This document shows positions 3,753-28,335 of a stretch of 64,000 nt of DNA, in pieces. The notes under the pieces are model-generated. The model was not told where the DNA came from. It worked only from the letters and a program-made list of their open reading frames with translations, and did not search any database. The position numbers were made by a program, and so were the translations under genes. Source of the stretch: Candidatus Eiseniibacteriota bacterium (lineage in GTDB: Bacteria; Eisenbacteria; RBG-16-71-46; JABDJR01); assembly GCA_963762255.1 (NCBI GenBank), contig CAVXKA010000001.1, positions 1,120,001 through 1,184,000 on the forward strand. Reading direction: 5' to 3'. Position 1 is the stretch's first letter, and the number at the start of each line of letters is the position of its first letter.

Positions 3753-3768
3753 TCCGCGAGGCTTCGAC

Positions 3769-7257: not shown

Positions 7258-7267
7258 CGAAGGCCTC

Positions 7268-8260
7268 GTGACCGGCCCCGCCGTCGAGCCTCGCCCCGGC
7301 GCATTCGGAAAGCTACCGCTCGCCGCGGACTTCGTGGCGGTCAACGCCGGAGGCCCCGGAGTGCGCGGCTTCACCGAGTGGCTGCAGGAGGGTGTCGGTC
7401 TCGGCCACGCCCGACTGGGAAGCTCGTGGGACACGACGTTTCCGCGCATGCCCGCCTGGCGCTTTCTCCTGACCATGGGCCCCGGCGGGATCGCGCTCGC
7501 CGGGGTTATGGTGGCGGGGCGGGACCGGAGCGGCCGACGGTTCCCGTTCACCCTCTTCGCCGGCGTGCCCCCGCTCGAAGCGGCGGGGTTGGGTGCGCGA
7601 TTGGCCGGCTTGCTTCCCTTCCTGGATCGGGCCGAGGGCGAGGCCCGGCGGTTGGTGGAGCTGGGCGAGGTGTCGGGGCCGTCGCCGTTGCGGCCAGTGT
7701 CCGAGGCCGTTGAAGGTCTCTCCGCCTCCCTCCCTGCTGGGGGCGCGGGGACCTCGTCGATGCCCGCGCCATGGCCCGCGATCTCGGCGCTCTCCGACCT
7801 CGACCCCGCCGGGGCGGGGCACCTGCTCACCCGGATCGGTGGGAATCTACTGGAGGTGGCGGCCCGGGCGGGATCGAACGGCGCAAGTGCCCCTGCATAC
7901 GGGCTTCGTACTCCGGTCCCCGCGCACGGTCCCGAGGCGATGGCGGTGGTGCGCTTCTGGGTGGAACTCGCCCGCCGGGCGATCGGGAAAGAGGGAACGC
8001 CGCGCGCGATTTTCTGGTCCCTGGCCGACGGGAACGGTCGGGGATCGCTCGATCTTTATTTTCGCCCCCCCGGGACCACGGCGTTCCTACACCTCGTAGA
8101 CCGGGCTTTCGAGAGCGACGCGCTTTATCTTCTGGACGAGGCGGATCCAACCCGCCCCGGACCGGCGGCGCGGTCCTGGGCAGATGCCGTCTCGGAACTC
8201 TGCGCGCGGGACGCGACCCTCGATGAGGTGCTCACCCGGCTGGACCCCCACCCGTGTTGA
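7268..8260 (+). CDS. tagF: T6SS-associated TagF/ImpM
   Basis: 'GAFGKLPLAADFV', 'WLQEG', 'WRF', 'GVMVAGRDRSGRRFPF'; follows tssM. Confidence 0.9.
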   Translation: MTGPAVEPRPGAFGKLPLAADFVAVNAGGPGVRGFTEWLQEGVGLGHARLGSSWDTTFPRMPAWRFLLTMGPGGIALAGVMVAGRDRSGRRFPFTLFAGVPPLEAAGLGARLAGLLPFLDRAEGEARRLVELGEVSGPSPLRPVSEAVEGLSASLPAGGAGTSSMPAPWPAISALSDLDPAGAGHLLTRIGGNLLEVAARAGSNGASAPAYGLRTPVPAHGPEAMAVVRFWVELARRAIGKEGTPRAIFWSLADGNGRGSLDLYFRPPGTTAFLHLVDRAFESDALYLLDEADPTRPGPAARSWADAVSELCARDATLDEVLTRLDPHPC

Positions 8261-8498
8261 CCGAGGATCGACCGGGGCCCGGAGCGCCGGCGCCGATGAG
8301 GTCCGGAGAGGCAGCTTCGGAGGCATTCCTGCGGGACTTGAATCCGGGAGTGGTCTCGCCTAGACTCGCTGACTTATACCTTACCGAATCGCCCGGAAGC
8401 GCTGAAGCGTGGGGAGCCACCTCTCCCCACCGGTGCCTCCAGATCTTCGTGTCGTGTCGTCAAACACTTAGTCTATCGGGAGAGGAACGACAAAGCTG

Positions 8499-10052
8499 GT
8501 GAGCGCAGCGGAGTTCCTGGACCTCGCGTCGAAACCCATTCGGGAAGATGCCCCCGCCGGAGTGTCGGTCAGGGACGAACCCGAATTCGAGAGCCTCCAG
8601 CAGGAGATGCGGAAGTTGGAGCTTCCCACCTTGCCGGAAGTGGCTTGGGGCGACGTCGTGCGTGGTGCGGGGGTGATCCTCGAAACCCGATCCAAGGATC
8701 TCCTGGTGGCGAGCTGGCTCTGCGTCGGCCTCTACGAGCGCGACGGAGCCGCCGGTCTCGCCGCCGGCCTCACCGTAATGCGGGACATCCTGACGAACTA
8801 CTGGGAGACCCTCTATCCCGAGATGAAGCGCATGCGCGGGCGGGCGGCCGCGATCGAGTGGCTGGGAGAGCGCGGCGCTCAGTGCCTTTCCGTCGCGGGA
8901 GCCAAGCGCGGGTCTCCCGACGATTTGAGGACATGCCAGGAGCGGGTTCGGGAGATCGGTGAGTTCCTCGCCGACAAGCTCGAGAGCGGCGGGACCCTTC
9001 TATCGGAGCTTCGACGAGCCCTGGATGACGCGGTCATGCGCCAGGCGGCACCGCCGGCGCCGGCGCAGCCCGCGGGCGGTGCGGCCGGCAAGTCCTCGGT
9101 GGAATCGGTGGCCTCTCTCGATGACGCGAACAAAGCCCTCGCCGAGATTCGCCGTCTTGCGCTGGCCGCCTCCGCGGTCTTGCGCGAAACCGAGCCCGCG
9201 AATCCGTCGGCCTATCGGCTGCCCCGGCAGGTGTTGTGGGCGCGGGTCACTCAGGCTCCTCCGCAATCGGACGGGCAGACCCAGATACCCGCTCCCGGCG
9301 ATTTGGGGGTCGAACTCCAGGCGGCCCTGGATCGCGCGGAGTGGAAGGGTGTGGTGATGCGTGCCGAGGACAAGTTGGCGACCAGCATCTTCTGGCTCGA
9401 TCTCCACCGCTATACGGTGACCGCTCTGGAAGCGATGGGAGAGTCCTTCGCCCCCGCGGCGGAGGCCGTGTGCGAAGAGCTGGCTTTGCTCTTGAGGCGC
9501 GTGCCCGAACTCCCGACGCTGCGCTTCGCCGACGGCAGCGGACTGGCCGACGACACCACGCGGAAGTGGATCCACACCCGGGTTGCGGGAGTTCTCGGCG
9601 GGGGCCACACGGCGGCGGCGCCTGCTCCGGTTCCCGTCGACGGCATGCCCGACCTGGAAGGGTTTGAGGAGGCCCGCGCAGAGGCAAGAAAGTTGAGCGG
9701 CAAGAAGCAGCTTCCGCAAGCGTTACGGCGTCTGGAAGAAGGCGCGGCGCGAGCCGGGCGCTTTCCGGCGCGTGCCCGCTGGAGACTGGAGATGGCCCGG
9801 CTCTGTCTTGAGCGGGGTCAGCCGGCGGCGGCGGAGGCCATGCTCGAGAACCTGGACCGGGAACTTTCCCGATCGACCTACGAGGACTGGGGCCCCGAAT
9901 TGTCCGCGGAGATTCTCAAGACGTTGCTTGCGTGCCGACGCAAGGCGGGGCGGGCCGCCGGTCCCGATGAGGCGGAGCGGAACCGCACTCTGTTGAATCG
10001 GCTCTATCGTCTCGACGTGATGGCGGCCATGGACGCGGATGGCCGGGGTTGA
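8499..10052 (+). CDS. tssA: T6SS protein TssA (ImpA N-terminal domain plus VasJ-like C-terminus)
   Basis: 'PIREDAPAGVSVRDEPEF', 'SKDLLVASWL', 'YWETLYP', 'FWLDLHR', 'LRFADGSGLAD..TRKWI'. Confidence 0.92.
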   Translation: MSAAEFLDLASKPIREDAPAGVSVRDEPEFESLQQEMRKLELPTLPEVAWGDVVRGAGVILETRSKDLLVASWLCVGLYERDGAAGLAAGLTVMRDILTNYWETLYPEMKRMRGRAAAIEWLGERGAQCLSVAGAKRGSPDDLRTCQERVREIGEFLADKLESGGTLLSELRRALDDAVMRQAAPPAPAQPAGGAAGKSSVESVASLDDANKALAEIRRLALAASAVLRETEPANPSAYRLPRQVLWARVTQAPPQSDGQTQIPAPGDLGVELQAALDRAEWKGVVMRAEDKLATSIFWLDLHRYTVTALEAMGESFAPAAEAVCEELALLLRRVPELPTLRFADGSGLADDTTRKWIHTRVAGVLGGGHTAAAPAPVPVDGMPDLEGFEEARAEARKLSGKKQLPQALRRLEEGAARAGRFPARARWRLEMARLCLERGQPAAAEAMLENLDRELSRSTYEDWGPELSAEILKTLLACRRKAGRAAGPDEAERNRTLLNRLYRLDVMAAMDADGRG

Positions 10053-10170
10053 CGCGGGGCGACTCATCGAACCGTTCTGATGTGGAGACTCGGCGGCACC
10101 GTGGAGTCGGGCAATCCCGGCTCCGAGAATCGGTTCCGCCTCTAACGCTACCAACGCCAAGGAGAGGACC

Positions 10171-10728
10171 ATGGCCAAGGAAGGATCGGTAGCTCCCAAG
10201 GAGCGAGTGAATATCGTCTACAAGCCCGCCACCGGCGGAGCCCAGGCGGAGATCGAGCTTCCGCTCAAACTCATGGTTCTGGGCGACTTCACCAACCGCA
10301 CGGACGAGACGCCCCTCGAGGAGCGGAAGGCGATCACGGTGGACAAGGACAATTTCAACGACGTGATGGCGCAGCACAATCTCGGGGTGACCATCAACGT
10401 GAAGAACACTCTGAGCGGAGGCCAGGGGGACGAGCTGAGCGCCAAGCTCCAGTTCAAGAACCTTCGGGATTTCGAGCCCGCCGCGATCGCCCGCCAGGTT
10501 CCGGAGCTCAACAAGCTGCTCGAACTGCGCGAGGCCCTCACCGCGCTGAAGGGTCCGCTGGCCAACGCCCCCGCCTTCCGCAAGAAGATCGAGGCGCTTC
10601 TGCAGGATCCGGCCCAGCGCGAGAGGATCATGAGGGAGTTGGGCCTGGGCGGCGGTGCCGCACCCGCTCCGGCGGACGCACCTCCCGAAGGGGGCGGCGG
10701 ACCCTCGAACCCCGAGACCGGTGCTTAG
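10171..10728 (+). CDS. tssB: T6SS contractile sheath small subunit TssB/VipA
   Basis: 'SVAPKERVNIVYK', 'ELPLKLMVLGDFT', 'DFEPAAIARQVPELNKLLELREAL'; strong AAGGAG RBS. Confidence 0.97.
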   Translation: MAKEGSVAPKERVNIVYKPATGGAQAEIELPLKLMVLGDFTNRTDETPLEERKAITVDKDNFNDVMAQHNLGVTINVKNTLSGGQGDELSAKLQFKNLRDFEPAAIARQVPELNKLLELREALTALKGPLANAPAFRKKIEALLQDPAQRERIMRELGLGGGAAPAPADAPPEGGGGPSNPETGA

Positions 10729-10808
10729 TACGGGCATTCGAATGAGCGAGTCCCAGGAACGGGTCGCCGCGGCTTCCGGGCCGGTCTGCGCGCCCTGGAG
10801 GAAAGACA

Positions 10809-12306
10809 ATGTCTGAGATGGAAAAGCAAGCACAGCCCGCGGCCGCAGGGGCGCAGGAGGCCGGTGGCTCGCTGCTCGACGAGATCGTCCTGACCACGAA
10901 GGTGAAGCCCACGGACGAGAGCTTCGCGGTGGCGAAGCGGGGGCTGGAGGCCTTCATCAAGGAGCTGGTCCGTCCCGGGGTGACGCTCCCCGGGTCCACC
11001 AGTCGGTGATCAACGAGATGATCGCCGAGCTGGACGAGAAGATGAGCGCGGCAGATCGACGACGATCCTCCATCATCCGCAGGTCCAGACGGTCGAGTCC
11101 GCCTGGCGCGGTCTCAAGCTCCTGGTCGACCGGACGGACTTCCGGGAGAACACCAAGATCGAGATCTTGAACGTCTCCAAGGAAGACCTCCTGAACGATT
11201 TCGAGGATTCCCCGGAGCTGGTGAAGTCCGGCCTCTACAAGCAGATCTACAGCGGCGGAGTACGGGCAGTTCGGCGGCGAGCCCATCGGGGCGATGATCG
11301 CCAACTACGAGTTCACGGCGCATCCGCAGGACATCAAGCTGCTGCAGTACGCGGCCGCCGTCGCCACCATGGCCCATGCGCCGTTCATCGCTGCGGCCAG
11401 CCCCAAGTTCTTCGGCGAGGACGACATTACGGACGCTGCCCAATCTCAAGGACCTGAAGTCGATCTTCGAGGCGCCGACAGTACGCCAAGTGGCGTTCCT
11501 TCCGCGAATCGGAGGACGCGCGGAACGTCGGGCTTGTCATGCCCCGATTCCTACTCCGGCTCCCCTACGGCGAGGAGACGGTGCCGGTCAAGGAGTTCAA
11601 CTACGACGAGCAGGTCGACGGGCAGCCACGACAAGTACCTCTGGGGGAACGCCGTCTTCACCTTCGCCACCCGGTTGACCGACAGCTTCGCCAAGTTCCG
11701 GTGGTGTCCCGAACATCATCGGCCCGCAGAGCGGCGGCGCGGTCGAGGACCTGCCGGTCCACGTCTACAAGGCGATGGGCGCGACCGAGCAGAAGATCCC
11801 CACCGAGGTGCTGATCTCCGAGCGGCGGGAGTTCGAGCTGGCCGAGGAGGGGTTCATCGCCGCTCACCATGCGCAAGGGGTCGCGACAATGCCGCCTTCT
11901 TCTCCGCGAACTCCTGCCAGAAGCCGAAGTTCTTCGGACAGAGCAAGGAAGGAAAGGACGCCGAGACCAACTACAAGCTCGGCACCCAGCTTCCCTACAT
12001 GTTCATCGTCAACCGCCTGGCTCACTACATCAAGGTGATCCAGCGGGAGAACATCGGGAGCTGGAAGGAGAGAGCGATCTCGAATCGCGAACTGAACAAC
12101 TGGATCAACCAGTACGTGGCGGAGATGGACGACGCGAGCGCGACGGTACGAGGCGCGGCGGCCGCTGCGGGAGGCCGAGATCATGGTCGAGGACGTCGAG
12201 GGCGATCCGGGCTGGTACAGGGTCGGACATGAAGGTGCGCCCCCACTTCAAGTACATGGGTGCGTTCTTCACGCTCTCCCTGGTCGGGAAGCTGGACAAG
12301 AAGTAA
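10809..12306 (+). CDS. tssC: T6SS contractile sheath large subunit TssC/VipB, broken by multiple frameshifts (probably assembly errors)
   Basis: Pieces in different frames give 'SLLDEIV', 'ESAWRGLK', 'PRFLLRLPYG', 'YLWGNAVF', 'KIPTEVLISERREFELAEEGFI', 'RLAHYIKVIQRENIGSWK', 'VRPHFKYMGAFFTLSLVGKLD'; about 1.5 kb. Confidence 0.93.
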
Positions 12307-12421
12307 CCGCGGTCCGGCCCGGCCGGCGCGCGGTCCCGAATCCGAAGGGCGGTCGCATCGAGGCGGCCAGGTGACCCGCCCGGACCTCTCACAACCCATC
12401 GTCACCAGGAGGCAACGGCTC

Positions 12422-12913
12422 ATGGCGGAGACCGTCCATCTGTAGCTGAAGGCGAACGGCGCGGACGTCCAGGGCGACAGCACCACACATCCATGGAGCG
12501 GGAGAATAGCATCGAGTGCGTGTACTTCGAGTCCTCGGTGCAGACCGCTCGTGAGGCGGGCAGCGGGGCCTCCACGGGCCGCCGGTCGCTACGAGCCGAT
12601 CGTGATCCGCAAGCGGATCGACAAGTCCACGCCACTCCTGTACAAGGCGCTCGCCAACAACGAGGTTATCGACGGGAACGTTCAAGTTCTTCGCCCGAAC
12701 CCGAGCGGCGACGGCACCACCGAGCAGTTCTACACCATCGAGTTCACGAACGGCAGGGTGGCCAGTTTCAAGGCTGTCAGCCCCGATTCCATCGATCCCG
12801 CCTCGGCGACGCATCCCCCACTGGAGGAGATCTCGTTCGTGTTCCAGACGATCTCCTGGACCTACGAGCCGAGCGGGGTGATGCACCAGGATAGCTGGAG
12901 AGCGCAAACCTAA
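12422..12913 (+). CDS. hcp: T6SS tube protein Hcp/TssD, with an in-frame TAG at 12443-12445 and about two frameshifts (probably errors)
   Basis: MAETVHL*LKANGADVQGDS / MERENSIECVYF / 'YEPIVIRKRIDKSTPLLYKAL..NE', 'EEISFVFQTISWTY'; AGGAGG RBS. Confidence 0.9.
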
Positions 12914-13010
12914 TCCGCCTCTGATCAATGTCCGGGGATCCGGTGGGAGGATGCTGCGAGGCGTCCTCCCACCCCATTCCGCCGTCCACTGAACCGCCAT
13001 CGGAGGGCCC

Positions 13011-13427
13011 GTGCCGCGGGATCGGAGCCTGTTCGAACGCCTGCGTGATCCGGGGAGCGAGGCCCCGCGGACCATCCACGAGAACACCGGTCGGCTGGCC
13101 GACTCGGTCCTGGCCAACCTGCGCAACCTGCTCAATTCCCGGCAGCGGATTGCTCCTGCTTTGCCTGACTACGGGATCCCCGACATGGTGGATCTCGCCA
13201 CCAGCTTCCCGGAGGGGGTGAGCGGCATGCGCCGGGCCATCAAGGATGTCATCGAGACTTACGAACCGCGGCTCCGGCGGGTGACCGTGAAGTACGTAGA
13301 AACTCCGGACGACCCGCTCGCCCTGCGGTTCGAGATCACCGCGGAGCTCGCCACCGCCGAGGAACGCGCCGCGGTCTGGTTCGAGACCCGCATCGATTCC
13401 TCGGGCGAAGTGGACGTCAAGGGATAG
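13011..13427 (+). CDS. tssE: T6SS baseplate subunit TssE (gp25-like)
   Basis: 'SLFERL', 'NLRNLLNSRQ', 'DYGIPD', 'YEPRL'. Confidence 0.93.
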   Translation: MPRDRSLFERLRDPGSEAPRTIHENTGRLADSVLANLRNLLNSRQRIAPALPDYGIPDMVDLATSFPEGVSGMRRAIKDVIETYEPRLRRVTVKYVETPDDPLALRFEITAELATAEERAAVWFETRIDSSGEVDVKG

Positions 13428-13430
13428 GCG

Positions 13431-15191
13431 ATGTTCAACAAGTACTACCAGGACGAACTCCTGTACCTGCGGGAACTCGGGGAAGAGTTTGCGCGCGCCC
13501 ATCCCGCCGCCGCCCACTTTCTGGGTCAGACCGGCAGCGATCCGGACGTGGAGCGGCTTCTCGAGGGCTTCGCCTTCCTCTCCGGGCGCATCCGCCAGAA
13601 GCTGGACGACGAACTTCCGGAGCTCACGCACTCGCTTATGGGCATGCTTTGGCCGCACTACCTGCGGCCGGTGCCGGCGCTGGCCGTGCTCGAGTTCTCC
13701 CCGGTCCTGGCCGCTCTGCGACAGTCCCAGCGCATCGCCCGCGGGGTGGAGGTCCAGTCGATTCCGGTGGAGGGGACGCCCTGCCGGTTTCGCACCGCCT
13801 ACGAGGTGCGCCTGAACCCCATCTCGCTGGAAGGTGTGAGCCTGGAGAGCCAGGCCACCGGACCGTCGCGGCTCTTCCTGGATTTCCGGGTCTGGAACCA
13901 AGCCCGCGTGGACACTCTGGATCTCCGCCGTCTGCGTCTCTTCCTCCACGGCGACCCCGCGGTGAGCACCACCCTCTATCACAATCTCTGTCGCCACGTG
14001 CGCGAGGCGACCGCCCGCGTCTCGAGCGCGACCGGGGAGGGGGACGGCCCCGGGGGGCGGGTGCCGGTGACCTTCGAGCCGGCCGGCTTTGCCGAAGAAG
14101 AAGCACTGCTCCCGTATCCGGCGCGGGCCTTTTCCGGATACCGCCTGATCCAAGAGTATTTTTCGTTGCCCGAGAAGTTTCTTTTCGTAGATGTGGTCGG
14201 CCTCGACAAGCTCGCCCACCTGCCGGTGCAGGATCGATTCCGGGTGGAAGTTCGATTCGATCAGGCGCTGCCGGTCAGTCTCCGGCCCACCCGGGATGAG
14301 ATCCGACTCTACTGCACGCCCATCGCCAACCTCTTCGCGCATGAGGCGGACCCGTTCCGGATCGATCGCACGCAGGCGGAGTATCGCCTGCGCCCCTCGG
14401 GAACCAATCCCATCCACTATGAGATCTTCTCGGTGGATCGGGTGACCGGGATCCTCCCAGGCACCGCCCAGGAGCGGGTCATCCCCGATTTCTACTCCTT
14501 CCGCCACGGCGGGACCTCGGGGGATTCCACGCATTATCACGACCGGGTGCGGGCGTCGGTGGTGGACGATCGTTCCGAGCACTACCTTTCCTTCGTGGAC
14601 GTGCGGGGGATCAGCGCGATCCCCCCGGTCGAGACGATCTCGGTGTCGCTGACCGCTACCAACCGCCGCCTACCCGAGGGCCTCCGTATCGGGGACGTGA
14701 GCGTGCCCACCGATTCCTCGCCGGAGTTCGTGCGGTTCAAGAATCTCACCGTCCCCACCCCCTCGGTGGCCCCTCCCCTTGAGGGCGATCTGCACTGGCG
14801 GCTCATCTCCCACCTGTCGCTGAACTACATTTCGCTCACCAGCGTGGAGGCGCTTCGGGGGATCCTCGAGCTGTACAACTTCCAGGCCATGCGCGACCCG
14901 CGGGCGGCGCGAGCCAATGCCATGCGGATCCGCGGCATCGAACGCCTGCGAAGCCGCCCCGCCATGGTTCTGGTCCGCGGGGCTCCGATCCGAGGGTGGG
15001 ACGTGGAGCTGGATCTCCTCGAGGACCACTACGCCGGCGACGGGGATCTGCATCTCTTCGCCGCGCTCGTGAACGAGTTCCTGAGCCTGCACACCACCAT
15101 CAATTCCTTCACGCGACTCCGCACGCGGGGGATCCAACACGGCGAGGAGATGACGTGGCCGTCGAAGATCGGACAGAAGACGCTGATCTGA
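13431..15191 (+). CDS. tssF: T6SS baseplate subunit TssF
   Basis: 'YYQDELLYLRELGEEFA', 'DPDVERLLEGFAFL', 'LYCTPIANLF', 'WRLISHLSLNY'. Confidence 0.97.
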   Translation: MFNKYYQDELLYLRELGEEFARAHPAAAHFLGQTGSDPDVERLLEGFAFLSGRIRQKLDDELPELTHSLMGMLWPHYLRPVPALAVLEFSPVLAALRQSQRIARGVEVQSIPVEGTPCRFRTAYEVRLNPISLEGVSLESQATGPSRLFLDFRVWNQARVDTLDLRRLRLFLHGDPAVSTTLYHNLCRHVREATARVSSATGEGDGPGGRVPVTFEPAGFAEEEALLPYPARAFSGYRLIQEYFSLPEKFLFVDVVGLDKLAHLPVQDRFRVEVRFDQALPVSLRPTRDEIRLYCTPIANLFAHEADPFRIDRTQAEYRLRPSGTNPIHYEIFSVDRVTGILPGTAQERVIPDFYSFRHGGTSGDSTHYHDRVRASVVDDRSEHYLSFVDVRGISAIPPVETISVSLTATNRRLPEGLRIGDVSVPTDSSPEFVRFKNLTVPTPSVAPPLEGDLHWRLISHLSLNYISLTSVEALRGILELYNFQAMRDPRAARANAMRIRGIERLRSRPAMVLVRGAPIRGWDVELDLLEDHYAGDGDLHLFAALVNEFLSLHTTINSFTRLRTRGIQHGEEMTWPSKIGQKTLI

Positions 15192-16255
15192 GCCGGCTCA
15201 TCTTCGAGGAGCCGTATCGGTTCTCGTTCCCTCAACTGGTGCGCCTGCTCCTGGACCGGCGGGAAGGGGCGGCCGCCCCCGGCGAGGGGGGACCGCCGGG
15301 GCGTGAGACCGTGCGGTTCCGTCCCGCGTTGAGCCTCGGCTTCGCCAACTCCGATGTGACCGCGGTGGATCGGAGCGAGGATCCCTCGGCCGAGATCCCG
15401 GTCCGGTATCGGGTGACCGTGAACTTCTTCGGTCTCTACGGGCCGTCCTCGCCCATGCCCAACCACTTCACCGAGGGCCTTCTATGGGATGGAGTCGAGG
15501 CCCAGGGTCTCCGCGACTTTCTCGATCTCTTCAACCACCGGTTCATCTCCTTTCTCTACCGCGGATGGGTGAAGTATCGCTACTCGGAGCAGTATGCGGC
15601 CGACGGAGGGGATTCCCTGACCGGCCGGATGCTCTGCTTGATCGGGCTGGGTACGCCCGGCATGAAGGAAGCGCTCGGGATTCCCTTCCCTCTCCTGTTA
15701 AGGGGCGCCGGGCTCCTCGGGCCGCACGGAAGATCCGCCGCCGCGCTTCGCGGGTTCCTGGAGGATCAGTTCGACGAGGTGCCCGTGGCGGTGGAAACCT
15801 TCCGCGAACGGATCACGCCTATCCCCCGCGAACAGCTCTGCCGCCTGGGGACGGGGACCGCGCGTCTCGGGGACAGCGCCTGCCTGGGGGAGAGCGTTTT
15901 GGATCACGCGGGCGCCTTCCGTTTGGTGCTGGGGCCGCTGGACGTCGCCGTCGCCGCCCGCTTCCTTCCCGGCCGCGACGCGTTCCGCCGTCTGGTGCGT
16001 CTCACCCGGTATTTCGTCACCGACCCTCTCGAATTCGATGTAGCCCTTCGGGTGAAGCCGGAGACCATTCCCCCCCTGCGTCTGGGCGGCGCCGATGACC
16101 AGCCTCTGGGAGAACTGAGCTGGATCGCACCGCGTGGAAGCGAGGAGGGCTTCGTGGTTCTCTCCACGCTCGGCGCCGATCCGGTGATCGGGGCGACGGG
16201 CCCATACCGAGACGAGGACGCTTATTCCGCCCCGACCGCGTGGGCGATTTCCTGA
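15155..16255 (+). CDS. tssG: T6SS baseplate subunit TssG
   Basis: 'PYRFSFPQLVRLL', 'VRFRPALSLGF', 'NFFGLYGPSSPMP', 'DFLDLFNHR'. Probable GTG start at 15155 overlaps the end of tssF. Confidence 0.93.
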   Translation: MAVEDRTEDADLSRLIFEEPYRFSFPQLVRLLLDRREGAAAPGEGGPPGRETVRFRPALSLGFANSDVTAVDRSEDPSAEIPVRYRVTVNFFGLYGPSSPMPNHFTEGLLWDGVEAQGLRDFLDLFNHRFISFLYRGWVKYRYSEQYAADGGDSLTGRMLCLIGLGTPGMKEALGIPFPLLLRGAGLLGPHGRSAAALRGFLEDQFDEVPVAVETFRERITPIPREQLCRLGTGTARLGDSACLGESVLDHAGAFRLVLGPLDVAVAARFLPGRDAFRRLVRLTRYFVTDPLEFDVALRVKPETIPPLRLGGADDQPLGELSWIAPRGSEEGFVVLSTLGADPVIGATGPYRDEDAYSAPTAWAIS

Positions 16256-16268
16256 AGGAGAGGCTCCC

Positions 16269-18951
16269 ATGGACGTCGACATCAAAGGTCTGATCAACAA
16301 GCTGAACGGCCCCAGTCGAAGGGCACTCGAAGCGGCGGCGGGGAACTGCGTTTCGCGCGGCCACTACGAGGTCACGGTGGAGCATCTCCTCCTGCAGTTC
16401 CTGGAGGACCCCGCCGGAGACGTCCAGGCCATCCTCCGCCACTTCGAGATCAACCCCGCCGCGCTTCTGCGCACGGTGCAGCATGTGCTGGAGCGGGTGC
16501 GCGCCGGGAACACCGGGCGCCCGGTCTTCTCGCCCCTCCTGCTGGGGTGGATCCAGGACGCGTGGCTGACGGTGTCGGTGGACTACGGCGACGATCGCGT
16601 CCGCTCCGGGGGGCTCTTGCTGGCCCTCGTGCAGAAGCCGGATCGATTCACCGACGAGGATCTCTCCGGCTACCTGGAGCCGATTCGCAAGGACGAACTC
16701 AAGCGGGATCTCTACCGCATCACCGCCTCCAGTTCCGAGCACGAGGCGGTCGGGGAAGGGGAGCCTCGACCCCAGGGGCCGGCCCGCCCCGCCGACGAGA
16801 CGGCGATCGGACGGTTCATGATCGACTTCACCGACCGGGCGCGAAAGGGCGAGATCGATCCGGTGTTCGGGCGCGACCGCGAGATCCGGCAGATGATCGA
16901 CATCCTGGCCCGGCGGCGGAAGAACAACCCGATCGTGGTGGGCGAGCCCGGCGTGGGGAAGACCGCGGTGGTCGAGGGGCTGGCGCTGCGCATCGTGGAA
17001 GGGGACGTCCCCGACGTCCTCAAGAACGTGCGACTTCTCTCGCTCGACCTTGGGCTGCTCCAGGCCGGCGCCGGGGTGAAGGGCGAGTTCGAGAACCGGC
17101 TCAAGGCGGTGATCACCGAGGTCAAGGCCTCGCCCACGCCGATCGTGACCTTCATCGACGAGGCCCACACGCTGATCGGCGCGGGGGGCTCCGCGGGCGG
17201 GAGCGACGCCGCCAACCTCCTGAAGCCGGCGCTCGCCCGCGGCGAGCTGCGCACCATCGCCGCCACCACCTGGTCCGAGTACAAGAAGTACTTCGAGAAG
17301 GACGCCGCGCTGGAGCGCCGCTTCCAGGTGGTCAAGCTGGACGAGCCGTCCGAGGAGGACGCGATCCTCATGATGCGCGGACTGCGCGAGAAGTACGAGG
17401 AGGCCCACGGCGTGCGGATCCGCGACGAGGCAGTGGAGGCGGCGGCCCGCCTCTCCAGCCGCTACATCTCCGGGCGGCAGCTCCCCGACAAGGCGGTCGA
17501 TCTCTTGGACACCGCGGCGGCCCGCGTCAAGATCGCCCAGGCCACCAAGCCCGAAGCCGGTGGACGACCTGGAGCGGCAGCATGCAGGCGCTCGAGCGCG
17601 AGCGCGACGCGCTCAACGGAGGACGAGGACCTGGCGGCGCGGGGGCGAAGCGCGCGACCGGCGCGCGAGGCGCTGACGCGCGAGCTGATCGCGCGCGTCG
17701 AAGACGCGAAGCCGTCGAAGGAGATGCGACCGACGCCGCTGGGAGGAGGAGCGGCGAAGCGGTCGACGCAGCGGTGCCGGCTCTGGCCGCGGCCGCGGTT
17801 CCTCGGCGAAGACCGCGCCGGCCGCGCCGCCGGTGGAAGGTCGCGCGCGGAGACTGGATGCGGCCCTGCGCCGCGCTGGCCGAAGCTCCAGGGCGCGAAC
17901 CCGCTCGTCCCGCTCGACGTGGACGCCGCGTGCTCGTCGCGGCCGTGGTCAGCGAGCTGGACCGGCATCCCGGTGGGCAAGATGATCCGCGACGAGGCCG
18001 CCCTCGTTCTTGACTTCCGCGATCGCATGGCCGAGCGGATCAAGGGTCAGGACCAGGCGCCATCGAAGCGGTCGATCGCGGGCTTCGGGCCTCCCGCGCC
18101 GGGCTCAAGAACCCGCAGCACGCCCATCGGCGTCTTCCTCTTCGTGGGGCCGAGCGGGGTCGGGAAGACCGAGACCGCGCTCGCGGTGGCCGACCTCATG
18201 TTCGGCGGCGAGCGCTTCATCACCACCATCAACATGTCCGAGTTCCAGGAGAAGCACACGGTGAGCCGGCTCATCGGCTCGCCGCCCGGCTACGTCGGCT
18301 ACGGCGAGGGCGGCGTGCTGACCGAGGCGGTCCGGCAGCGGCCCTACTCGGTGGTCCTCCTCGACGAGGTGGAGAAGGCCGATCCCGAGGTGATGAACAT
18401 CTTCTACCAGGTGTTCGACAAGGGCATGCTGGCCGACGGCGAAGGGCGGGTCATCGACTTCAAGAACACCGTCGTCTTCCTGACCAGCAATCTGGCCACC
18501 GACGTGATCATGCAGATGTGCGCCGGCCCGGTCCCGCCGACGCTGGACGAGGTCACCGGCGCCATTCGCCCGATCCTCTCCCAGCACTTCAAGCCGGCGC
18601 TGCTGGCCCGCATGGAGATCGTGCCCTTCTACCCGCTTGCGCGGCGATTTCCTGAAGGAGATCATCCGGCTCAAGCTGAGCAAGGTGGCCGGCCGTCTCT
18701 GGGACAGCCACCGCATGGTCCTCGCGACCGATCCGCGGGTGGAGGAAGTCATCGCCGCCCGGTGCACGGAGGTCGAGACGGGGGCCCGCAACATCGATCA
18801 CATCATCCAGCAGACGCTTCTCCCCATGCTCTCCACCGCGCTTCTGGAACGGATGTCGGAGGGCCCGCTCCCCGACCGAGTCCGGGTCACCGTGGGTGAG
18901 GACGAGAGCTTCGGACTCGAGTTCGGGGGACCGGCGGACAAGGAGGCGTAG
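16269..18951 (+). CDS. tssH: T6SS ATPase ClpV/TssH; garbled middle (about 17550-18110) and a frameshift near 18645
   Basis: 'GEPGVGKTAVVEG', 'FIDEAHTL', 'GRQLPDKAVDLLDTA', 'GPSGVGKTETA', 'LLDEVEKA'. The C-terminal 'GARNIDHII' lies in the next frame. Confidence 0.95.
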
Positions 18952-18953
18952 CC

Positions 18954-21065
18954 ATGGCAATCATCCGGTCCACGCGCCAGGCCGACTTTTCCCTCGAGGT
19001 GGACGGGTTGCCCGCCGACGAGTTCCTCGTCACGCGGTTCAGCGGTTACGAGGGCATCTCCACGCTCTATCGGTTCGAGGTGGATCTCGCCTCCCGGGAT
19101 CCCCAGATGGACTTCGACGCCGTGGTGGGCAAGAACACCCTCCTTTCGCTCCAGAGCCAGTTCGGGGAGCGGTTGGTGCATGGAATGATCTGTCGCTTCG
19201 AGCAGATCGGAAGGGGGCAGACCTATACGTACTACCGGGCCCGGCTGGTTCCGCGGCTCTGGCTCCTCAGGCTGCGCACGCAGAGCCGCATCTTCCAGAA
19301 CATGGATGTTCCCGCGATCGTCCAGGAAGTCCTGACCGGTGCGGGCATCCCATCGGACCACTACGATCCCCAACTGACCGGAAGCTATGCCACTCGGGAG
19401 TACTGCGTGCAGTACCGGGAGAGCGATTTCGATTTCTTGAGTCGGCTCCTGGAGGAAGAGGGCATCCACTACTTCTTCCGGCACGCCGAGGACTCGCATG
19501 TGCTGATCACCGGCGATGCCTCGGAGTGCCATCCCGACCTTCCCGGAGATCCCGCACTGGTCTTCCGCGAGACCTCGTTCGGGAGCGTCCCTGGAAATGA
19601 AGTCGGACGGTTCCGGTTCCGCCGCGAGATGCGCACCGGCAAGACCATGGTCCGCGACTACGACTTCAAGAAGCCGACCCTGGATCTTTCGGCCACCGCC
19701 CAGTTGGCGAATCCAGGCGACGAGGGGGACAACGAGGATTACGACTATCCGGGGCGATTCGTCGAGGTCGCCGTGGCCAAGGAGCGGGCCAAGATCCGCC
19801 TCGCCGAGCATCGCACCGAGCGCGACCGTGTCCAGGGCCAGAGCAACTGTCGCCGATCCGCGCCCGGCTATTGCTTCAGCCTGGAGGAGCATCCACGAGC
19901 CGACTTCAACCGGGAGTACCTCATCACCCGCGTGAACCACTGGGGAAACCAGCCCCAGGCGTTGGCCGAGGAATCCGGCGTGTCCGAGGGGGAGCCGGTC
20001 TACTCCAACACCTTCGACTGCATCCCCGCCGACGATCCGCTTCGTCCTCGTCGCCTGACGCCACGTCCTCGGCTGGAAGGACCCCAGACCGCGGTGGTCA
20101 CCGGGCCGGAGGGGGAGGAGATCTACCCCGACTCTTTCGGGCGCATCAAGGTGCAGTTCCACTGGGACCGCGACGGACAGCACGACGAGCGGACTTCCTG
20201 CTGGGTGCGGGTAGGGCAACCGTGGGCCGGGCCCGGGTGGGGATCGATGTTCATCCCTCGGATCGGCATGGAGGTGATGGTGAGCTTTCTGGAGGGGGAC
20301 CCCGACCAGCCGCTCGTCACCGGCTGCGTGTACAACGGGGACAACCCGCCTCCCTATCCCCTCCCCGACGAGAAGACCAAGAGCACGCTCCGTTCCGCCT
20401 CGTCCCCGGGAAGCGGGGGCTTCAACGAGTTCCGTTTCGAGGACGCGGCCGGGAGCGAGGAGATCTTTCTCCACGGGGAGAAGGACTGGAACGTGGTCAT
20501 CAAGCACGACGAATCCCAGAGCATCGGGAACGACGAGAACCGGAGTGTGGGGCACGACCAATCCATCACCGTGAAGAACAAGCAGACGATCAAGGTCTCG
20601 GAGGGCCCCGCCGAGCTGTTCGTGGACGGGAACAACCGTGTGGTGATCGTGGACCAGCAGTACTACCGGCTCTCCAAGACCTCCTACGAGGAGGACACCG
20701 AGAAGTCGGAGAAGCGGGTCGGCAACAACTGGATGACCACGGATCAGGGCAAGATCGAGCTGAAGGCCACCGCCAATACGATCACCATGGACGCGGGCAA
20801 GATCGAGCTCAAGGTGGGGGGAAGCACGATCACGCTCACCCCCGGCGGAATCGAGATCAAGGGCACGAAGGTCACGATCCAGGGAACTTCGGAAGCCAAG
20901 CTCGGCGGAGGAAAGGTCGCGGTGACCGCCGATACCGAGTGTAAGGTGGGTGGAGCCACGGTGGACGTCACCGCCACCGGCGCCGCCACGCTGGGAGGAG
21001 CCACGATCTCGGCCTCCGCGTCCGGGCCTCTCTCCCTGAGCGGCACGCCGGTCAAGGCCAACTGA
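18954..21065 (+). CDS. tssI: T6SS spike protein VgrG/TssI with a gp5-like beta-repeat C-terminus and no effector extension
   Basis: 'REYCVQYRESDFDFLSRLLEEEGIHYFF', 'GRIKVQFHWDR', 'IPRIGMEVMVSFLEGDPDQPLVTGCVYN', 'NEFRFED'. Confidence 0.97.
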   Translation: MAIIRSTRQADFSLEVDGLPADEFLVTRFSGYEGISTLYRFEVDLASRDPQMDFDAVVGKNTLLSLQSQFGERLVHGMICRFEQIGRGQTYTYYRARLVPRLWLLRLRTQSRIFQNMDVPAIVQEVLTGAGIPSDHYDPQLTGSYATREYCVQYRESDFDFLSRLLEEEGIHYFFRHAEDSHVLITGDASECHPDLPGDPALVFRETSFGSVPGNEVGRFRFRREMRTGKTMVRDYDFKKPTLDLSATAQLANPGDEGDNEDYDYPGRFVEVAVAKERAKIRLAEHRTERDRVQGQSNCRRSAPGYCFSLEEHPRADFNREYLITRVNHWGNQPQALAEESGVSEGEPVYSNTFDCIPADDPLRPRRLTPRPRLEGPQTAVVTGPEGEEIYPDSFGRIKVQFHWDRDGQHDERTSCWVRVGQPWAGPGWGSMFIPRIGMEVMVSFLEGDPDQPLVTGCVYNGDNPPPYPLPDEKTKSTLRSASSPGSGGFNEFRFEDAAGSEEIFLHGEKDWNVVIKHDESQSIGNDENRSVGHDQSITVKNKQTIKVSEGPAELFVDGNNRVVIVDQQYYRLSKTSYEEDTEKSEKRVGNNWMTTDQGKIELKATANTITMDAGKIELKVGGSTITLTPGGIEIKGTKVTIQGTSEAKLGGGKVAVTADTECKVGGATVDVTATGAATLGGATISASASGPLSLSGTPVKAN

Positions 21066-24770: not shown

Positions 24771-26114
24771 TCAGTCCCGCTCCACGGGAAGCAGGAACGT
24801 GAATGTGATGGGTTTTCCCTCGAGGGGAACCGCCGAGCGGACCTGGATCTCGGCCATGGCGCGCGGGCCTTCGGGGCCCTCCACGGACGTCGCCTTCACG
24901 GCGACCGCCTCGTCGCCGCCGAGCGGGCCCAGGAACTTGCTCAGTTCGTCGCGGAAGAAGGTGGCAACCTCCTCAGGAGATCCGCCGGGCATCGCGTCGA
25001 GGAGGTTTCCGCAGAAGCGGGCTATGCGGCCGGCGGTGATCTGGTGGGCGAGCATCCCTTCCACGGTCAGCCGACCCGGAGCGAGGCGGGACACCGTGAC
25101 CGCGATCGGAATCATCGCGGTCCCCGCGCGCAACTGTCCGATGACCGGCGTGAACGCCGCGCGGGAGAGTTCCTGCGCCTTCATGTCCGGCATCGGGACC
25201 TCGGTCGAGAGGAGTGCGGTCTCGTTGGCCGCGACCGGATACGCCCGCGCAGGCAGGCTCTCGAACCGCCCCCCCCTGCCTCCGGACATGTCCAGCGCGT
25301 GCCCGAACACGCGGGCACTCCGCGCCAACGCCGCCGCGACGAGCCATCCGCCGCGCGCCCAGAGGAACGTCTCCGGCTTGGCCTCGGTCGTTCCTTCCGC
25401 ATAGTCCTCCGTCCGGTACGGTGCGCGCTCGAGGTGGCGGTTCAACGTGAGCGAGAACCAGCGCGCCTCTTCGGTGGCCTGGAACGCGGTCCACGCGGCG
25501 TGGGCAGGGTCGTTCAGCCGCCCCACCATGTCGGGCAGCGTGAGCACGTGCGCGAGGTGGCGCATGTCGAAGAAGCCCGCGCCGGCCGCGGCCACTGCTG
25601 GAGCCTGAAGCACCTTGGCCACGGCCGCCACCTCGCGCATCAACGCCAGGTCGGCCGCCTTGTGCGTGAAGTCGTAGTCGAGGAGCAGCAGCGTGGGGGG
25701 GGCGTCGCTGAGCATGCCCGGAGCGAGGACCGTCTCGCGCAGATGCTCCGCCAGCGACGCGCGAGAGACGGAGGCGACTTCGACCGCTACGTCCTCTCCG
25801 GCCTCGGACAGCAGCCGCGCCAGTCCACGCCACGCCGCCTCCAGTTGCTGGAGCGCGGGAGCGTGGAGGACCGCGTCGAGGGCTCCGCCGTCATCGCCGG
25901 TCAGCCCCAGCCTCTTTCTGAGAGCGCCCGGGGCCAGGTCGTCCAGCGAAGACGGGGTGAGCGTGACCATGCCCTTGCCGGGAACGGGGACCGCCGCCGA
26001 GGCGCCGATCTCGCGCAGGCGCTCTCCCAGGTCGGCGGCGCGCACGCGCAACGGCGGGGCGGGGTCGCCTCCCAGATCGGACAACACCGTGATCTTCCAG
26101 GGCAGAGATTCCAT
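24771..26114 (-). CDS. Single-chain TssB-TssC-like sheath protein (copy 2, 447 aa)
   Basis: N-terminal 'LPWKITVLSDLG...SLDDLAP' is TssB-like. 'VLHAPALQQLEAAWRGL', 'WTAFQATEEARWFSL', 'FLWARG' are TssC-like. GAGGAG RBS before ATG 26114. Confidence 0.75.
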   Translation of the reverse strand: MESLPWKITVLSDLGGDPAPPLRVRAADLGERLREIGASAAVPVPGKGMVTLTPSSLDDLAPGALRKRLGLTGDDGGALDAVLHAPALQQLEAAWRGLARLLSEAGEDVAVEVASVSRASLAEHLRETVLAPGMLSDAPPTLLLLDYDFTHKAADLALMREVAAVAKVLQAPAVAAAGAGFFDMRHLAHVLTLPDMVGRLNDPAHAAWTAFQATEEARWFSLTLNRHLERAPYRTEDYAEGTTEAKPETFLWARGGWLVAAALARSARVFGHALDMSGGRGGRFESLPARAYPVAANETALLSTEVPMPDMKAQELSRAAFTPVIGQLRAGTAMIPIAVTVSRLAPGRLTVEGMLAHQITAGRIARFCGNLLDAMPGGSPEEVATFFRDELSKFLGPLGGDEAVAVKATSVEGPEGPRAMAEIQVRSAVPLEGKPITFTFLLPVERD

Positions 26115-26166
26115 GACGACTCCTCGGTGTCCACGCGGCAGGCGGGGGGCCCGCCGCGATCCGCGG

Positions 26167-26643
26167 TCAAGGGATGGTGATGATCGTTCCCGGCGGCGGT
26201 CGCCGCCCGTGGTCGACGGAGACATCGAAGGCGTTGTTCTCCTCCTGCATCGTCTGTTTGCCTGCCTGGAATCGCGTCTCCAGGTCGGTGGCTCGAGTTC
26301 GGGCCAGACGATCGTGGACTCGGCGGGCCCCGGCCCGGATCCGGGAAGCATGCTCCCGTTCGTGAGCCAGGAGCGCAGCGTAGAAGCGGTCCCACTCCCG
26401 CTGCTCCGCCTCGGTGGCGGCATCCCGGTCGAGCCACCGCGGCATCGTGATGTCGATCGTCACGTTCACCACGAGGTTCTGGGCCAGACCCCGCGCGCTC
26501 ACGCCGTCGTACTCGTACCAGATGTTGTACTCGCAGCGCCCATCCTCGCCACCCGCGAGCCCCAGGTTGTTGCTCGCCGCCTCCAGCGTGGTCCCGGAGA
26601 CATCGTACGTGGCGAGTTGAGTCGGGGAGATGTTCAGGCTCAC
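26167..26643 (-). CDS. DUF922-family putative zinc metallopeptidase without a signal peptide
   Basis: 'YDVSG.T', 'ITMPRW', 'WDRFYAALLAHEREH' (HExxH), 'FD...HG'. Confidence 0.75.
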   Translation of the reverse strand: MSLNISPTQLATYDVSGTTLEAASNNLGLAGGEDGRCEYNIWYEYDGVSARGLAQNLVVNVTIDITMPRWLDRDAATEAEQREWDRFYAALLAHEREHASRIRAGARRVHDRLARTRATDLETRFQAGKQTMQEENNAFDVSVDHGRRPPPGTIITIP

Positions 26644-26646
26644 GGG

Positions 26647-28335
26647 TCAGTGCCCGCCGAGGGGAAGGCGCAACTCGAGCGGAGGAAGACCGCGCACCGG
26701 CTCGCCTCTTGGGGTCACGCGCAGGACGAGAGTCGCCCCGTCCTCGGCGATTGCGGCGGTGACCGCCACCTCCGCGCCCTCCGAGGTCGCGGTGAGAACC
26801 TCGAGGCCGGCGGCAAGCTGCACCGCCGTTTCCTCCGGACCTTGCGTCGGTCCCATCCAGTGCAGCAGGTGATCGATGAGCGCAGTGACGCGGGCGGTGA
26901 AGACCTGATAGGGGAGGGAGACCCGGAGCGCCTGCGCGCGCCGGTCCGAGCTCCCGTCGGGCGCGCTCGCCGCCGCGACCGAGGGAGCGGTCGGGAGAAA
27001 GGCCCGGTCGCGGTTCCGCGCGCAGGCCAGGGGCGCAAGCCCCGCGCGCGAAAGCTCCAGCACTCGATTCTCGGGCAGGAGCATCTCCAGCGGAATCTGC
27101 ACCGGTTCGCCGCCGCGCAACGCCAGAAGCCGTACGGGCAGATCGTTCACCTCGGCGGCGGCAGCCGGGCCGGTGATTGCCGCGCCCCACCCGTCCCGGA
27201 TCGCGGCCTCGGCGATCAGGGAGCCAACGATCCATGCCGGCCTCCCCCACAGGTAGACCGGCTCACGATCGGGCGGATTCTCCTCGAAGGCGAACCCCTT
27301 CACCCGATCCTGCTCCGCGCCGTAGGGAAGACGCAGGAGGAACGGGTTGGCCGCGAGCGTGAGCCACCGCGCGGCGGGGTCCGATCGCAGCGCCGTCCAT
27401 CCCGGGGGCGGGGATTCGTTCAGCAGCTCGTCGACCGCTCCGAGCGACTGGATCTCCTTCCAGGAGCTCAGCCCCAGGAGCCGGGGGTCGGCCGAAGCCA
27501 CCACCGGGATGCGGGCTTCCTCGGCGACGCCGGCCAGCTCCCTGGCCTCGGCCAGAGACGCCTCGTCCCCGCCGAAATCCGCATCCACCAGCGCCACCAC
27601 AGTACGTGCCTCGGCGCGCATCTCCACGGCGAGCGGAAGCAGGATGTTTCTGAAAGCATCCACGCGCTCGCCGGCGGGCGCGCTCAACACGTGCACACGG
27701 AAGCCGGAGCGCGAGTCGAGCCGGCGAAGCAGGAAGGCGAGCCCGCGCCACGCCGACTCCAGCGCGCGAAGACGCGGTTCGTGCAGCGTCTGTCGCAGCC
27801 CCTCGGCGGCGGCCGCGTCCTGGCTTGCGCTCTGTTCCGAGGGCTGGGTTGGGTTGCGGACCACGCCTCCGCCCGCGATTTCCTGGATCAGCCGGTCGAG
27901 AGACCGCAACGCATCCTGTGTTTCCGTTGCGCCCGTTTCCGCCGTCGAGCCGTCCACGTCCACGAGGTCGAAGAGTTCGCCTGCCTTGGGAGGTTGGGGC
28001 GAAGGCGAAGTCTGAGGCGGCGGCGCGGCCGGCGGTGGCGCTGAAGGCGGCGCGGCCTCCGGCAGCGCGGCGGGCGGCACGGATACGACACGGCGCGGGA
28101 GCGCTTCCGGGCGGAAGGCGCGGAGTTCATCGAAACGCAGGCTGACCGCCTTGCCGCCACCGATGTCGATCGACAGGGTGGGCGCGGCCTCCTTCAGCAA
28201 ATCCCCGAAGCTTGCCGCGTCGACCCGATGCGGTCGCAGGCGCAGCGGTGCATCTGCCGGGCCTTCGGGGAGGAAATCGGCCAGGACCAGGAGATCGAAG
28301 GGGGTCTCGCGTCCCGAGGGCCCGATCGCGCTCAT
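26647..28335 (-). CDS. Single-chain TssB-TssC-like sheath protein (copy 1, 562 aa) with a Pro-rich linker
   Basis: 'PFDLLVLADF...VDAASF...LRFDELRAFRPEAL' aligns by eye with the local TssB. 'LESAWRGL', 'PFLLRLPYG', 'YLWG' align with the local TssC. Confidence 0.82.
   Translation of the reverse strand: MSAIGPSGRETPFDLLVLADFLPEGPADAPLRLRPHRVDAASFGDLLKEAAPTLSIDIGGGKAVSLRFDELRAFRPEALPRRVVSVPPAALPEAAPPSAPPPAAPPPQTSPSPQPPKAGELFDLVDVDGSTAETGATETQDALRSLDRLIQEIAGGGVVRNPTQPSEQSASQDAAAAEGLRQTLHEPRLRALESAWRGLAFLLRRLDSRSGFRVHVLSAPAGERVDAFRNILLPLAVEMRAEARTVVALVDADFGGDEASLAEARELAGVAEEARIPVVASADPRLLGLSSWKEIQSLGAVDELLNESPPPGWTALRSDPAARWLTLAANPFLLRLPYGAEQDRVKGFAFEENPPDREPVYLWGRPAWIVGSLIAEAAIRDGWGAAITGPAAAAEVNDLPVRLLALRGGEPVQIPLEMLLPENRVLELSRAGLAPLACARNRDRAFLPTAPSVAAASAPDGSSDRRAQALRVSLPYQVFTARVTALIDHLLHWMGPTQGPEETAVQLAAGLEVLTATSEGAEVAVTAAIAEDGATLVLRVTPRGEPVRGLPPLELRLPLGGH

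Follow-up and report, generated by a model that had tools for sequence, protein, structure and literature searches.

The window, that is, the whole 64 kb stretch of DNA analysed here (~68% G+C; nearest named relatives, metagenome-assembled genomes (MAGs) of Candidatus Eisenbacteria), encodes two proteins, FusA and FusB, in which a TssB-like core is followed in one chain by a TssC-like sheath part. Both genes lie beside a canonical type VI secretion system (T6SS) cluster. The case is distinguished by a pair of such proteins that keeps the handshake domain of the sheath yet is without the N-terminal strand of TssB. We suggest, tentatively, that FusA and FusB are old, conserved single-chain paralogues of the sheath protomer, accessory to the adjacent T6SS, which form an end layer of the sheath or modulate its contraction. 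The two genes, the gene between them and the parts of the proteins are as follows.

26647..28335, minus strand: FusA, a single-chain protein of 562 residues with a TssB core, a linker and a full TssC-like part (one open reading frame (ORF))
28087..28335, minus strand: FusA residues 1-83, TssB-like core, strand-strand-helix-strand-strand-helix (hhalign; DSSP)
27922..28086, minus strand: FusA residues 84-138, Pro/Ala-rich disordered linker (predicted local distance difference test score (pLDDT) below 50)
27955..27978, minus strand: FusA residues 120-127, ELFDLVDV, a conserved motif at the place of the TssC N-terminal ClpV-binding helix
26167..26643, minus strand: DUF922 HExxH protein of 158 residues, between FusA and FusB (Pfam PF06037, 1.7e-24; coding pattern of G+C at third codon positions (GC3))
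24771..26114, minus strand: FusB, a minimal single-chain sheath protomer of 447 residues (translation; Pfam VipB, 4.5e-38)
25905..26114, minus strand: FusB residues 1-70, degenerate TssB-like core (hhalign; homologous to FusA 10-83)
24774..24905, minus strand: FusB residues 404-447, handshake hairpin (E404-413, E416-426) and C-terminal donor strand (E437-443) (DSSP on the predicted model)

Two single-chain genes

The original prediction, made by a model from the letters alone, had quoted TssB- and TssC-like motifs in one reading frame for each protein, and this is what we find. PFDLLVLADF (residues 12-21), FDELRAFRP (68-76), ESAWRGL (193-199), FLLRLPYG (332-339) and YLWG (361-364) all lie in the 562-residue ORF of FusA, and PWKITVLSDL (5-14), EAAWRGL and FLWA lie in one ORF of FusB. 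No stop or frameshift that would split either gene into a separate tssB and tssC was seen. On the sequence evidence, the fusions are real and not an artefact of assembly, because few gaps interrupt independent contigs, FusA and FusB align as single pieces to the related loci L020 and L022, and fused architectures recur as single frames in many independent assemblies. The independent short-read contigs come from close relatives (contigs, not reads); they cover FusB and the DUF922 gene well, and FusA among the listed pieces only at 26309-27024. Two of the alignments cover FusB sequence, one with 1 gap over 24359-26628 and the other with 0 gaps over 24041-25582.

For the second gene there is a 550-residue ORF starting at 26423. 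This ORF is not the gene, and the true start of FusB, which the prediction had missed, is at 26114. GAGGAG is located 5 nt upstream of this ATG, of 42 homologues 36 extend over 97% or more of the 447-residue form, and M1 and W6 are invariant in all 40 FusB-family members. The region 26115-26423 is without the coding GC3 pattern seen in every real gene here, and it overlaps the DUF922 gene in another frame. This gene (26167-26643), which is separated from FusB by 52 nt, had been overlooked; its product has no obvious signal peptide. The open frame of FusA extends over 575 residues, leaving only 13 in-frame codons upstream of the start, and GAGG is found 6 nt before the ATG.

A TssB-like core without the N-terminal arm

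A TssB profile was built from 23 canonical TssB sequences of related genomes. The N-terminus of the FusA family matches it with 98.1% in hhalign (E 9.6e-14; FusA 7-96 on TssB 26-125), while canonical TssC against TssB, the negative control, gave 0.13% (E 0.45). Against the Pfam VipA family PF05591, with its cut-off of 24 bits, FusA scores 21.4 bits (2.4e-4, hmmscan); the genome scan gave it 23.4 bits, or 24.2 bits together with neighbours. Values of 45.7, 33.5 and 31 bits were obtained for its orthologues, and all of these matches begin at profile position 20-26. The sequence signal of FusB is weak, with a match to TssB 29-110 at 37.7% (hhalign, E 3.4e-4) and no Pfam VipA match. FusB is recognised as TssB-like because it is homologous to the FusA N-terminus, and by its fold. 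FusB 3-446 aligns in one piece to FusA 10-561 (hhalign, E 3.5e-50), with high confidence over the N-terminal 70 residues and one large gap, which is opposite FusA 90-169.

The AlphaFold2 (AF2) model of FusB, made with 40 sequences and no templates, has a pLDDT of 93.6 and a predicted template-modelling score of 0.93. Against VipB/TssC chains it gives VIA Z scores of 32-34 over FusB 67-435 (33 for VipB 67-479), and against single-chain sheaths (pyocin, Photorhabdus virulence cassette (PVC), antifeeding prophage (Afp) and phages) 20-25 from FusB residue 2-5 to about 435. The overlay on the single-chain sheaths starts at their residue 22-25, just past their N-terminal arm. The FusA model, made with 15 sequences, has a pLDDT of 77 and is disordered at 1-12, 84-138 and 153-164. 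FusA 136-550 overlays TssC1 38-478 with a VIA Z of 32 (VipB/TssC1), and against single-chain sheaths FusA gives 15-19 over residues 9-551, starting from residue 9-14. By VIA, FusA and FusB each hold the two conserved sheath domains in one chain. Both models contain the strand-strand-helix-strand-strand-helix TssB core, the handshake hairpin and the last C-terminal strand. The prediction had named N-termini with no TssB fold as an outcome that would count against it. In FusA the core consists, by DSSP, of E15-18, E35-37, H40-50, E53-57, E63-67 and H71-74.

The ERVNIVY strand (TssB 11-18) is absent, as predicted. FusA and FusB begin at the equivalents of TssB residues 26 and 29, with only 12 and 5 residues, respectively, ahead of the first core strand, so that both are without TssB residues 1-25, which make up the donor strand of the N-terminus and its linker. 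The same start position is seen in 40 of 40 FusB-family and 8 of 8 FusA-family members. We conclude that the absence of the N-terminal arm is genuine, because the start is conserved, Shine-Dalgarno-like motifs precede it and there is no coding room upstream. The C-terminal helix of TssB, which forms domain 3 together with TssC, is also missing from FusB and is deleted in this copy of FusA, which is without about 30-45 residues kept by its orthologues (alignment columns 119-180). A hidden frameshift behind the short TssB part of FusA was considered and rejected; the missing helix is encoded in no other frame. Some relatives keep the helix, with PF05591 matches that extend to profile position 137-153.

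A TssC-like part with its handshake domain

The TssC-like parts were confirmed with the VipB hidden Markov model PF05943, a check proposed with the prediction: FusA scores 154.4 bits (4.6e-45) and FusB 131.4 bits, with a cut-off of 27. TssC chains in the PDB match FusA at E 1e-29 and FusB at E 5e-23, and identity to canonical TssC is 22-30%. In global profile alignments (hhalign -glob), FusA 94-560 maps on the entire canonical TssC 1-495 (E 2e-55), and FusB 78-447 maps on TssC 83-495. FusA is therefore an essentially complete TssC, and FusB is a TssC without the first ~80 residues. Both align to the last residue of TssC. The model for the C-terminal gpW/gp25-like handshake domain, PF18945, found no match in FusA or FusB at E up to 1; the domain with its donor strand is present in both by the global alignment, in the predicted models and by VIA, in which the match to VipB runs up to residue 474-481. 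The outer (recycling) domain 3 is partly missing in FusA and wholly missing in FusB, the latter a feature that the prediction had not noticed. VipB D333 is needed for contraction, according to the passages of PMC5797969 on this residue, and the equivalent acidic residue is kept in 40 of 40 FusB and 8 of 8 FusA sequences.

FusA keeps the TssC N-terminal helices, and the ELFDLVDV motif, with F122, V125 and V127 invariant in all 8 FusA orthologues, aligns with SLLDEIV of canonical TssC, at low confidence (hhalign). In other systems, the TssC region with the N-terminal helix is bound by the N-domain of ClpV (passages of PMC5048182). The FusA motif resembles such a ClpV handle and may bind ClpV. 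FusB has no region that matches the ClpV-binding helix.

Relatives and the age of the fusion

Eighteen related loci, searched with 8 close FusA sequences, were compared (L- and G-numbers are our labels for related loci and relatives' genomes). The FusA-FusB pair is present in 7 of the 18 (L020-L024, L026 and L031), the DUF922 gene lies between FusA and FusB in 4 of these 7 (L020, L021, L022 and L024), and in three MAG loci of Eisenbacteria, L020-L022, synteny extends over the full operon. L030 has two tandem fused genes. Among 40 relatives, 13 gave any sheath match, and each of the 13 has canonical TssC together with one or more fused paralogues; where they share a contig, they are 10-48 kb apart. 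G003, G008, G009 and G013 carry one tssK each. In G013 we also observed, at C1:1560124-1561065, a second full-length TssC-like gene (PF05943 2.9e-96; 511-residue frame) directly after canonical tssC, in addition to a fused paralogue 18 kb away.

Seventeen of the 23 FusA matches bear precomputed PF05591 and PF05943 domains. When 1.84 billion representatives were searched with a profile, 9061 matched at E 1e-3 or better, presumably including canonical TssC. The best 150 of the 9061 all have E below 1e-121. Among these 150, 17 are of a full-length long type like FusA, 16 of which start within 5 residues of the profile start, and about 129 are of a short type of ~500 residues, which is extended at the N-terminus and stops near TssC position 385. 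Atlas clusters give Myxococcota and Pseudomonadota as the most frequent phyla. One protein, P0130, is 2151 residues long and carries a fused sheath module at residues 1014-1420.

The prediction had called for a phylogeny against canonical TssC, and it sets the two families apart. In a quick, unrooted IQ-TREE tree of 76 hand-picked rows (8 FusA, 12 FusB, 16 short, 13 long, 2 others, 7 canonical TssC and 18 locus ORFs), the FusA-like clade has a Shimodaira-Hasegawa-like approximate likelihood ratio test (SH-aLRT) support of 100 and the FusB-like clade 99. The two join with forms from Nitrospirota and Desulfobacterales (SH-aLRT 91), apart from canonical TssC, and the short type is set apart from this grouping (SH-aLRT 100). 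This pattern suggests that the fusion is older than the split between FusA and FusB. FusA and FusB also fall far below the TIGR03355 equivalog cut-off of 271.5 bits, with 161.4 and 124.2 bits; from this and their placement in the tree, they are paralogues, not orthologues, of TssC.

A tblastn search of FusA against PLSDB plasmids gave 483 records, all on canonical tssC, with none covering at least 80% of the query; thus no fused form was found there at the tblastn sensitivity used. In databases the fused proteins are named 'sheath large subunit' or 'contractile sheath domain-containing protein', and the automatic annotation as 'sheath large subunit' hides FusA and FusB. Searches of the open literature, apart from supplements and subscription journals, brought up no study of natural fused TssB-TssC paralogues, only GFP-type fusions and unrelated uses.

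Gene neighbourhood

The canonical T6SS cluster and the genes packed around FusA and FusB are listed here.

304..21065, plus strand: canonical T6SS cluster, part 1, FHA-C, TssJ, TssK, TssL, TssM, TagF and TssA (Pfam; genome searches)
304..21065, plus strand: canonical T6SS cluster, part 2, TssB (10171-10728) and tssC (about 10805-12232, frame-broken in this assembly)
304..21065, plus strand: canonical T6SS cluster, part 3, hcp (12458-12865), TssE, TssF, TssG, ClpV and VgrG
about 21072-22300, minus strand: second DUF2169 protein, ~400 residues (Pfam; GC3 pattern; conserved in L020-L022)
22298-23194, minus strand: conserved hydrophobic ORF, 298 residues (66-86% identical in L020-L022; GC3 pattern)
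23191-24273, minus strand: DUF2169 protein, downstream of FusB (Pfam)
24230-24760, minus strand: DUF2345/DUF3540-like protein, downstream of FusB (Pfam)
28370-31789, minus strand: Ig-rich lipoprotein, 1139 residues, Ig/fn3 (Pfam; lipoprotein peptide judged by eye)
31786-33075, minus strand: exported protein with no assigned family (signal peptide judged by eye)
32931-34565 and 34562-35821, minus strand: two TPR/CsgG-like exported proteins (Pfam; signal peptides by eye)

The minus-strand genes, FusA and FusB among them, are tightly packed, and the run converges on vgrG. The order of transcription is the two TPR/CsgG-like proteins, the exported protein, the Ig-rich lipoprotein, FusA, the DUF922 protein, FusB, the DUF2345/DUF3540-like protein, DUF2169, the hydrophobic ORF and the second DUF2169. 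A scan of 20500-36500 for promoters and terminators found 0 promoter-like sites and 1 terminator-like site, where 7 were expected by chance, and is uninformative. An apparent DUF2169 ORF of 621 residues (21072-23194) is in fact two genes, the hydrophobic ORF and a DUF2169 gene, a split supported by GC3 periodicity; the hydrophobic ORF has no Pfam match. The four exported-protein genes 5' of FusA are joined by 4-bp overlaps or short gaps, and one of the TPR/CsgG-like proteins carries a peptidoglycan-binding domain. These upstream genes recur beside the pair in other Eisenbacteria and may be an envelope accessory of the T6SS.

Within the canonical cluster, the tssC frame is broken into about ten pieces, and hcp contains three 1-nt indels (10805-12865). 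Compared with a genome of the same family, the window carries 13 additional bases within tssC and hcp and is short of 5; most of these are single bases outside homopolymers. The short-read contigs from close relatives contradict the window at hcp positions 12588, 12673 and 12690, and they show 10-20 gaps against the window over tssC and 0-2 elsewhere. These breaks are probably consensus errors concentrated in the most conserved genes. The idea that FusA and FusB replace a dead canonical tssC was rejected, since the tssC breaks are judged to be assembly noise. In L021, FusA, FusB, both DUF2169 genes and the Ig-rich gene are each found in two or three frame pieces, which also looks like assembly indel noise.

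Possible roles in the sheath

Where might FusA and FusB act? In the handshake sheet of the T6SS sheath, the donors are one TssB N-terminal strand and one TssC C-terminal strand (passages of PMC5807055 on the sheet). Both linkers reach the neighbouring ring on the baseplate side, and for the first ring TssE has been proposed as the acceptor (in the part of PMC5813253 on these contacts). In V. cholerae, the VipA N-linker is critical for contraction and has been proposed to pull the next ring, and altered VipA subunits co-assemble with wild type and are dominant (sections of PMC5797969). The pair can be assigned as an accessory of one T6SS because of the synteny, the co-occurrence with canonical TssC in 13 of 13 relatives and the single-copy T6SS genes; genome searches found a single hcp, a single gp25-like gene (tssE) and a single tssF, all in the canonical cluster. 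The original prediction had offered a choice of specialised sheath subunit (first ring or cap), contraction modulator, ClpV decoy and heteromeric second sheath. An accessory subunit or contraction modulator fits, because the acceptor hairpin and C-terminal donor are kept and the N-linker is lost beside one canonical T6SS; the decoy is reduced to a lead for FusA, and a second machine is disfavoured.

In the mechanism that we propose, FusA and FusB would co-assemble at low copy with TssB and TssC around the Hcp tube and make up one or two special layers there. A layer of this kind would accept both linkers from the ring above, and six C-terminal linkers, in place of twelve, would hold it to the ring below (or to TssE). 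It could not be pulled via the N-linker, the proposed ring-to-ring contraction element, because FusA and FusB cannot donate an N-strand. These properties would suit a layer close to the baseplate, or one by which contraction is gated or stopped. The tethered motif of FusA could let ClpV act on the layer, while FusB would be invisible to ClpV.

Several observations weigh against this proposal. The alignment of the FusA motif with the ClpV-binding helix has low confidence values. The co-transcription of FusA and FusB with exported envelope proteins and DUF2169-type spike adaptor genes could point to another role. Fused homologues occur in the Desulfobacterales loci L033 and L034, where the fetched DNA holds no T6SS gene of the query set, so the wider fused family may act without a T6SS. 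(In these two loci and in L028, from Manganitrophaceae, genes that look by eye like Ser/Thr kinase and FHA genes are nearby.) Finally, the equivalent of VipB K223, mutation of which impaired V. cholerae sheath assembly, is G, A, N, P, S or H in 40 of 40 FusB sequences, and G or A in 7 of 8 FusA sequences, with R in the remaining one. As a marker of assembly competence this position is not discriminating: 4 of 7 canonical TssC from related loci also have A there, which makes the loss of K223 weak counter-evidence.

It is also conceivable, if unlikely, that FusA and FusB are soluble regulators or decoys that do not polymerise and that tune assembly or recycling by titrating ClpV (through the FusA motif), TssA, TagJ-like factors or free TssB/TssC. 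The conservation of ELFDLVDV at the place of the ClpV-binding helix and the loss of one of the two polymerisation linkers would both be expected of a decoy. A mere decoy would, however, have no need of the full handshake domain, the C-terminal donor strand and the D333-equivalent acid, all of which are kept; the short type, ending near TssC position 385, differs from FusA and FusB in this respect, and FusB has no ClpV-type motif.

Less probable than this, we think, is that the pair is a natural contraction lock, a low-copy layer near the baseplate without N-linkers, unable to receive or transmit the pull of contraction, which ClpV or a protease would remove or loosen and thereby license firing. 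The DUF922 HExxH protein would then cut the Pro/Ala linker of FusA, which is only an idea. Such a lock would serve as a safety catch within the sheath, a natural parallel to the non-contractile VipA-N3 sheath made by engineering.

A heteromeric second sheath, in which FusA and FusB would wrap their own tube and share Hcp and the baseplate or use another scaffold, seems improbable. In its favour, the pair is conserved and both models show full sheath-protomer folds, but a self-contained second machine is at odds with the single hcp, tssE and tssF, and a sheath is meshed by two linkers, of which FusA and FusB are missing one. Without the N-strand, six of the twelve inter-ring links, the cross-protofilament ones, would be missing (as the links are described in parts of PMC5807055 and PMC5813253), and 7 of 13 relatives appear to have only one fused paralogue.

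Slightly more doubtful again is a spike/effector-loading or envelope module, in which, for example, the pair would hold cargo as a ring together with the DUF2169 and DUF3540-like proteins, or would anchor the co-encoded envelope proteins from the cytoplasm. It would account for the DUF2345/DUF3540-like and DUF2169 genes tightly packed 3' and the four exported proteins 5', and for the recurrence of the upstream envelope genes in L024 and L025. In L023, L024 and L026, however, DUF2169 is on the other strand with vgrG, so that adjacency is conserved and not the operon, and the fused gene follows tagF in L036 and clpV in L032 and L035. We know of no precedent for it. We give almost no credence to an artefact or relic, be it a merger of tssB and tssC by frameshifts in the assembly or a pair of functionless duplicates in decay, for although canonical tssC and hcp of this assembly have many 1-nt indels, canonical tssB and tssC are separate, many independent assemblies contain orthologues built alike, with columns that are invariant all along the alignment, and FusB has 0-1 contig gaps, a coding GC3 pattern and very high AF2 confidence, by which this explanation is refuted as far as sequence data reach.

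Thus, accessory sheath paralogues are the reading that we retain, with due reserve. Sheath extension, the onset of firing at the baseplate and ring-to-ring contraction have been studied so far mainly with engineered linker mutants. FusA and FusB are natural, conserved sheath subunits without exactly that linker, FusB with a pyocin-like core and FusA with a possible ClpV handle. If they are in the sheath, T6SS sheaths can be built from more than one kind of subunit, like those of extracellular contractile systems, and the pair would offer a natural way into how contraction is controlled. If they are not, they represent a new class of sheath-derived regulators.

Relation to other contractile systems

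FusA and FusB resemble TssB/TssC (VipA/VipB, HsiB1/HsiC1; PDB 3J9G, 5N8N, 5URW and 5MXN) in the fold of the middle and inner domains (Z 32-34), in the motifs ESAWRGL, LRLPYG and YLWG, in the acceptor hairpin, C-terminal donor strand and D333-equivalent acid, and in their location beside a T6SS. They differ from TssB/TssC in being one chain and not two, in having no TssB N-terminal strand or linker, and in a domain 3 that is reduced or missing.

The single chain is shared with the sheaths of R-type pyocins, contractile phages and extracellular contractile injection systems (e.g. PDB 3J9Q, 6J0B and 6RBN). Paralogous sheath proteins take special layers in Afp/PVC particles, and the paralogues are conserved in extracellular contractile systems. 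Unlike the sheaths of all these systems, FusA and FusB are without the N-terminal arm (to residue ~22-25 in theirs), and they have no tube or baseplate genes of their own. By sequence, they are relatives of T6SS TssC and not of phage sheaths. FusB has only the two conserved domains, like the pyocin sheath as described in passages of PMC5807055.

Among natural forms, the short-type fused paralogues, members of which NCBI calls 'type VI secretion system contractile sheath large subunit' or 'contractile sheath domain-containing protein', also combine a TssB core with TssC in one chain at T6SS-linked loci and carry a ClpV-handle-like motif in the same alignment column as the FusA motif. However, the short type keeps an N-terminal strand-like segment and has no handshake domain, whereas the reverse is true of FusA and FusB, and the clades are separate. 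Among engineered proteins, the V. cholerae variants VipA-N2 to N7 likewise have an altered N-terminal inter-subunit link; in the portions of PMC5797969 that describe these N-linker mutants, the sheath assembles and does not contract, and mutant subunits co-assemble and are dominant. The lengthened linker of the VipA mutants still binds the neighbouring subunit, whereas FusA and FusB, which are natural and conserved genes, have neither the linker nor the strand.

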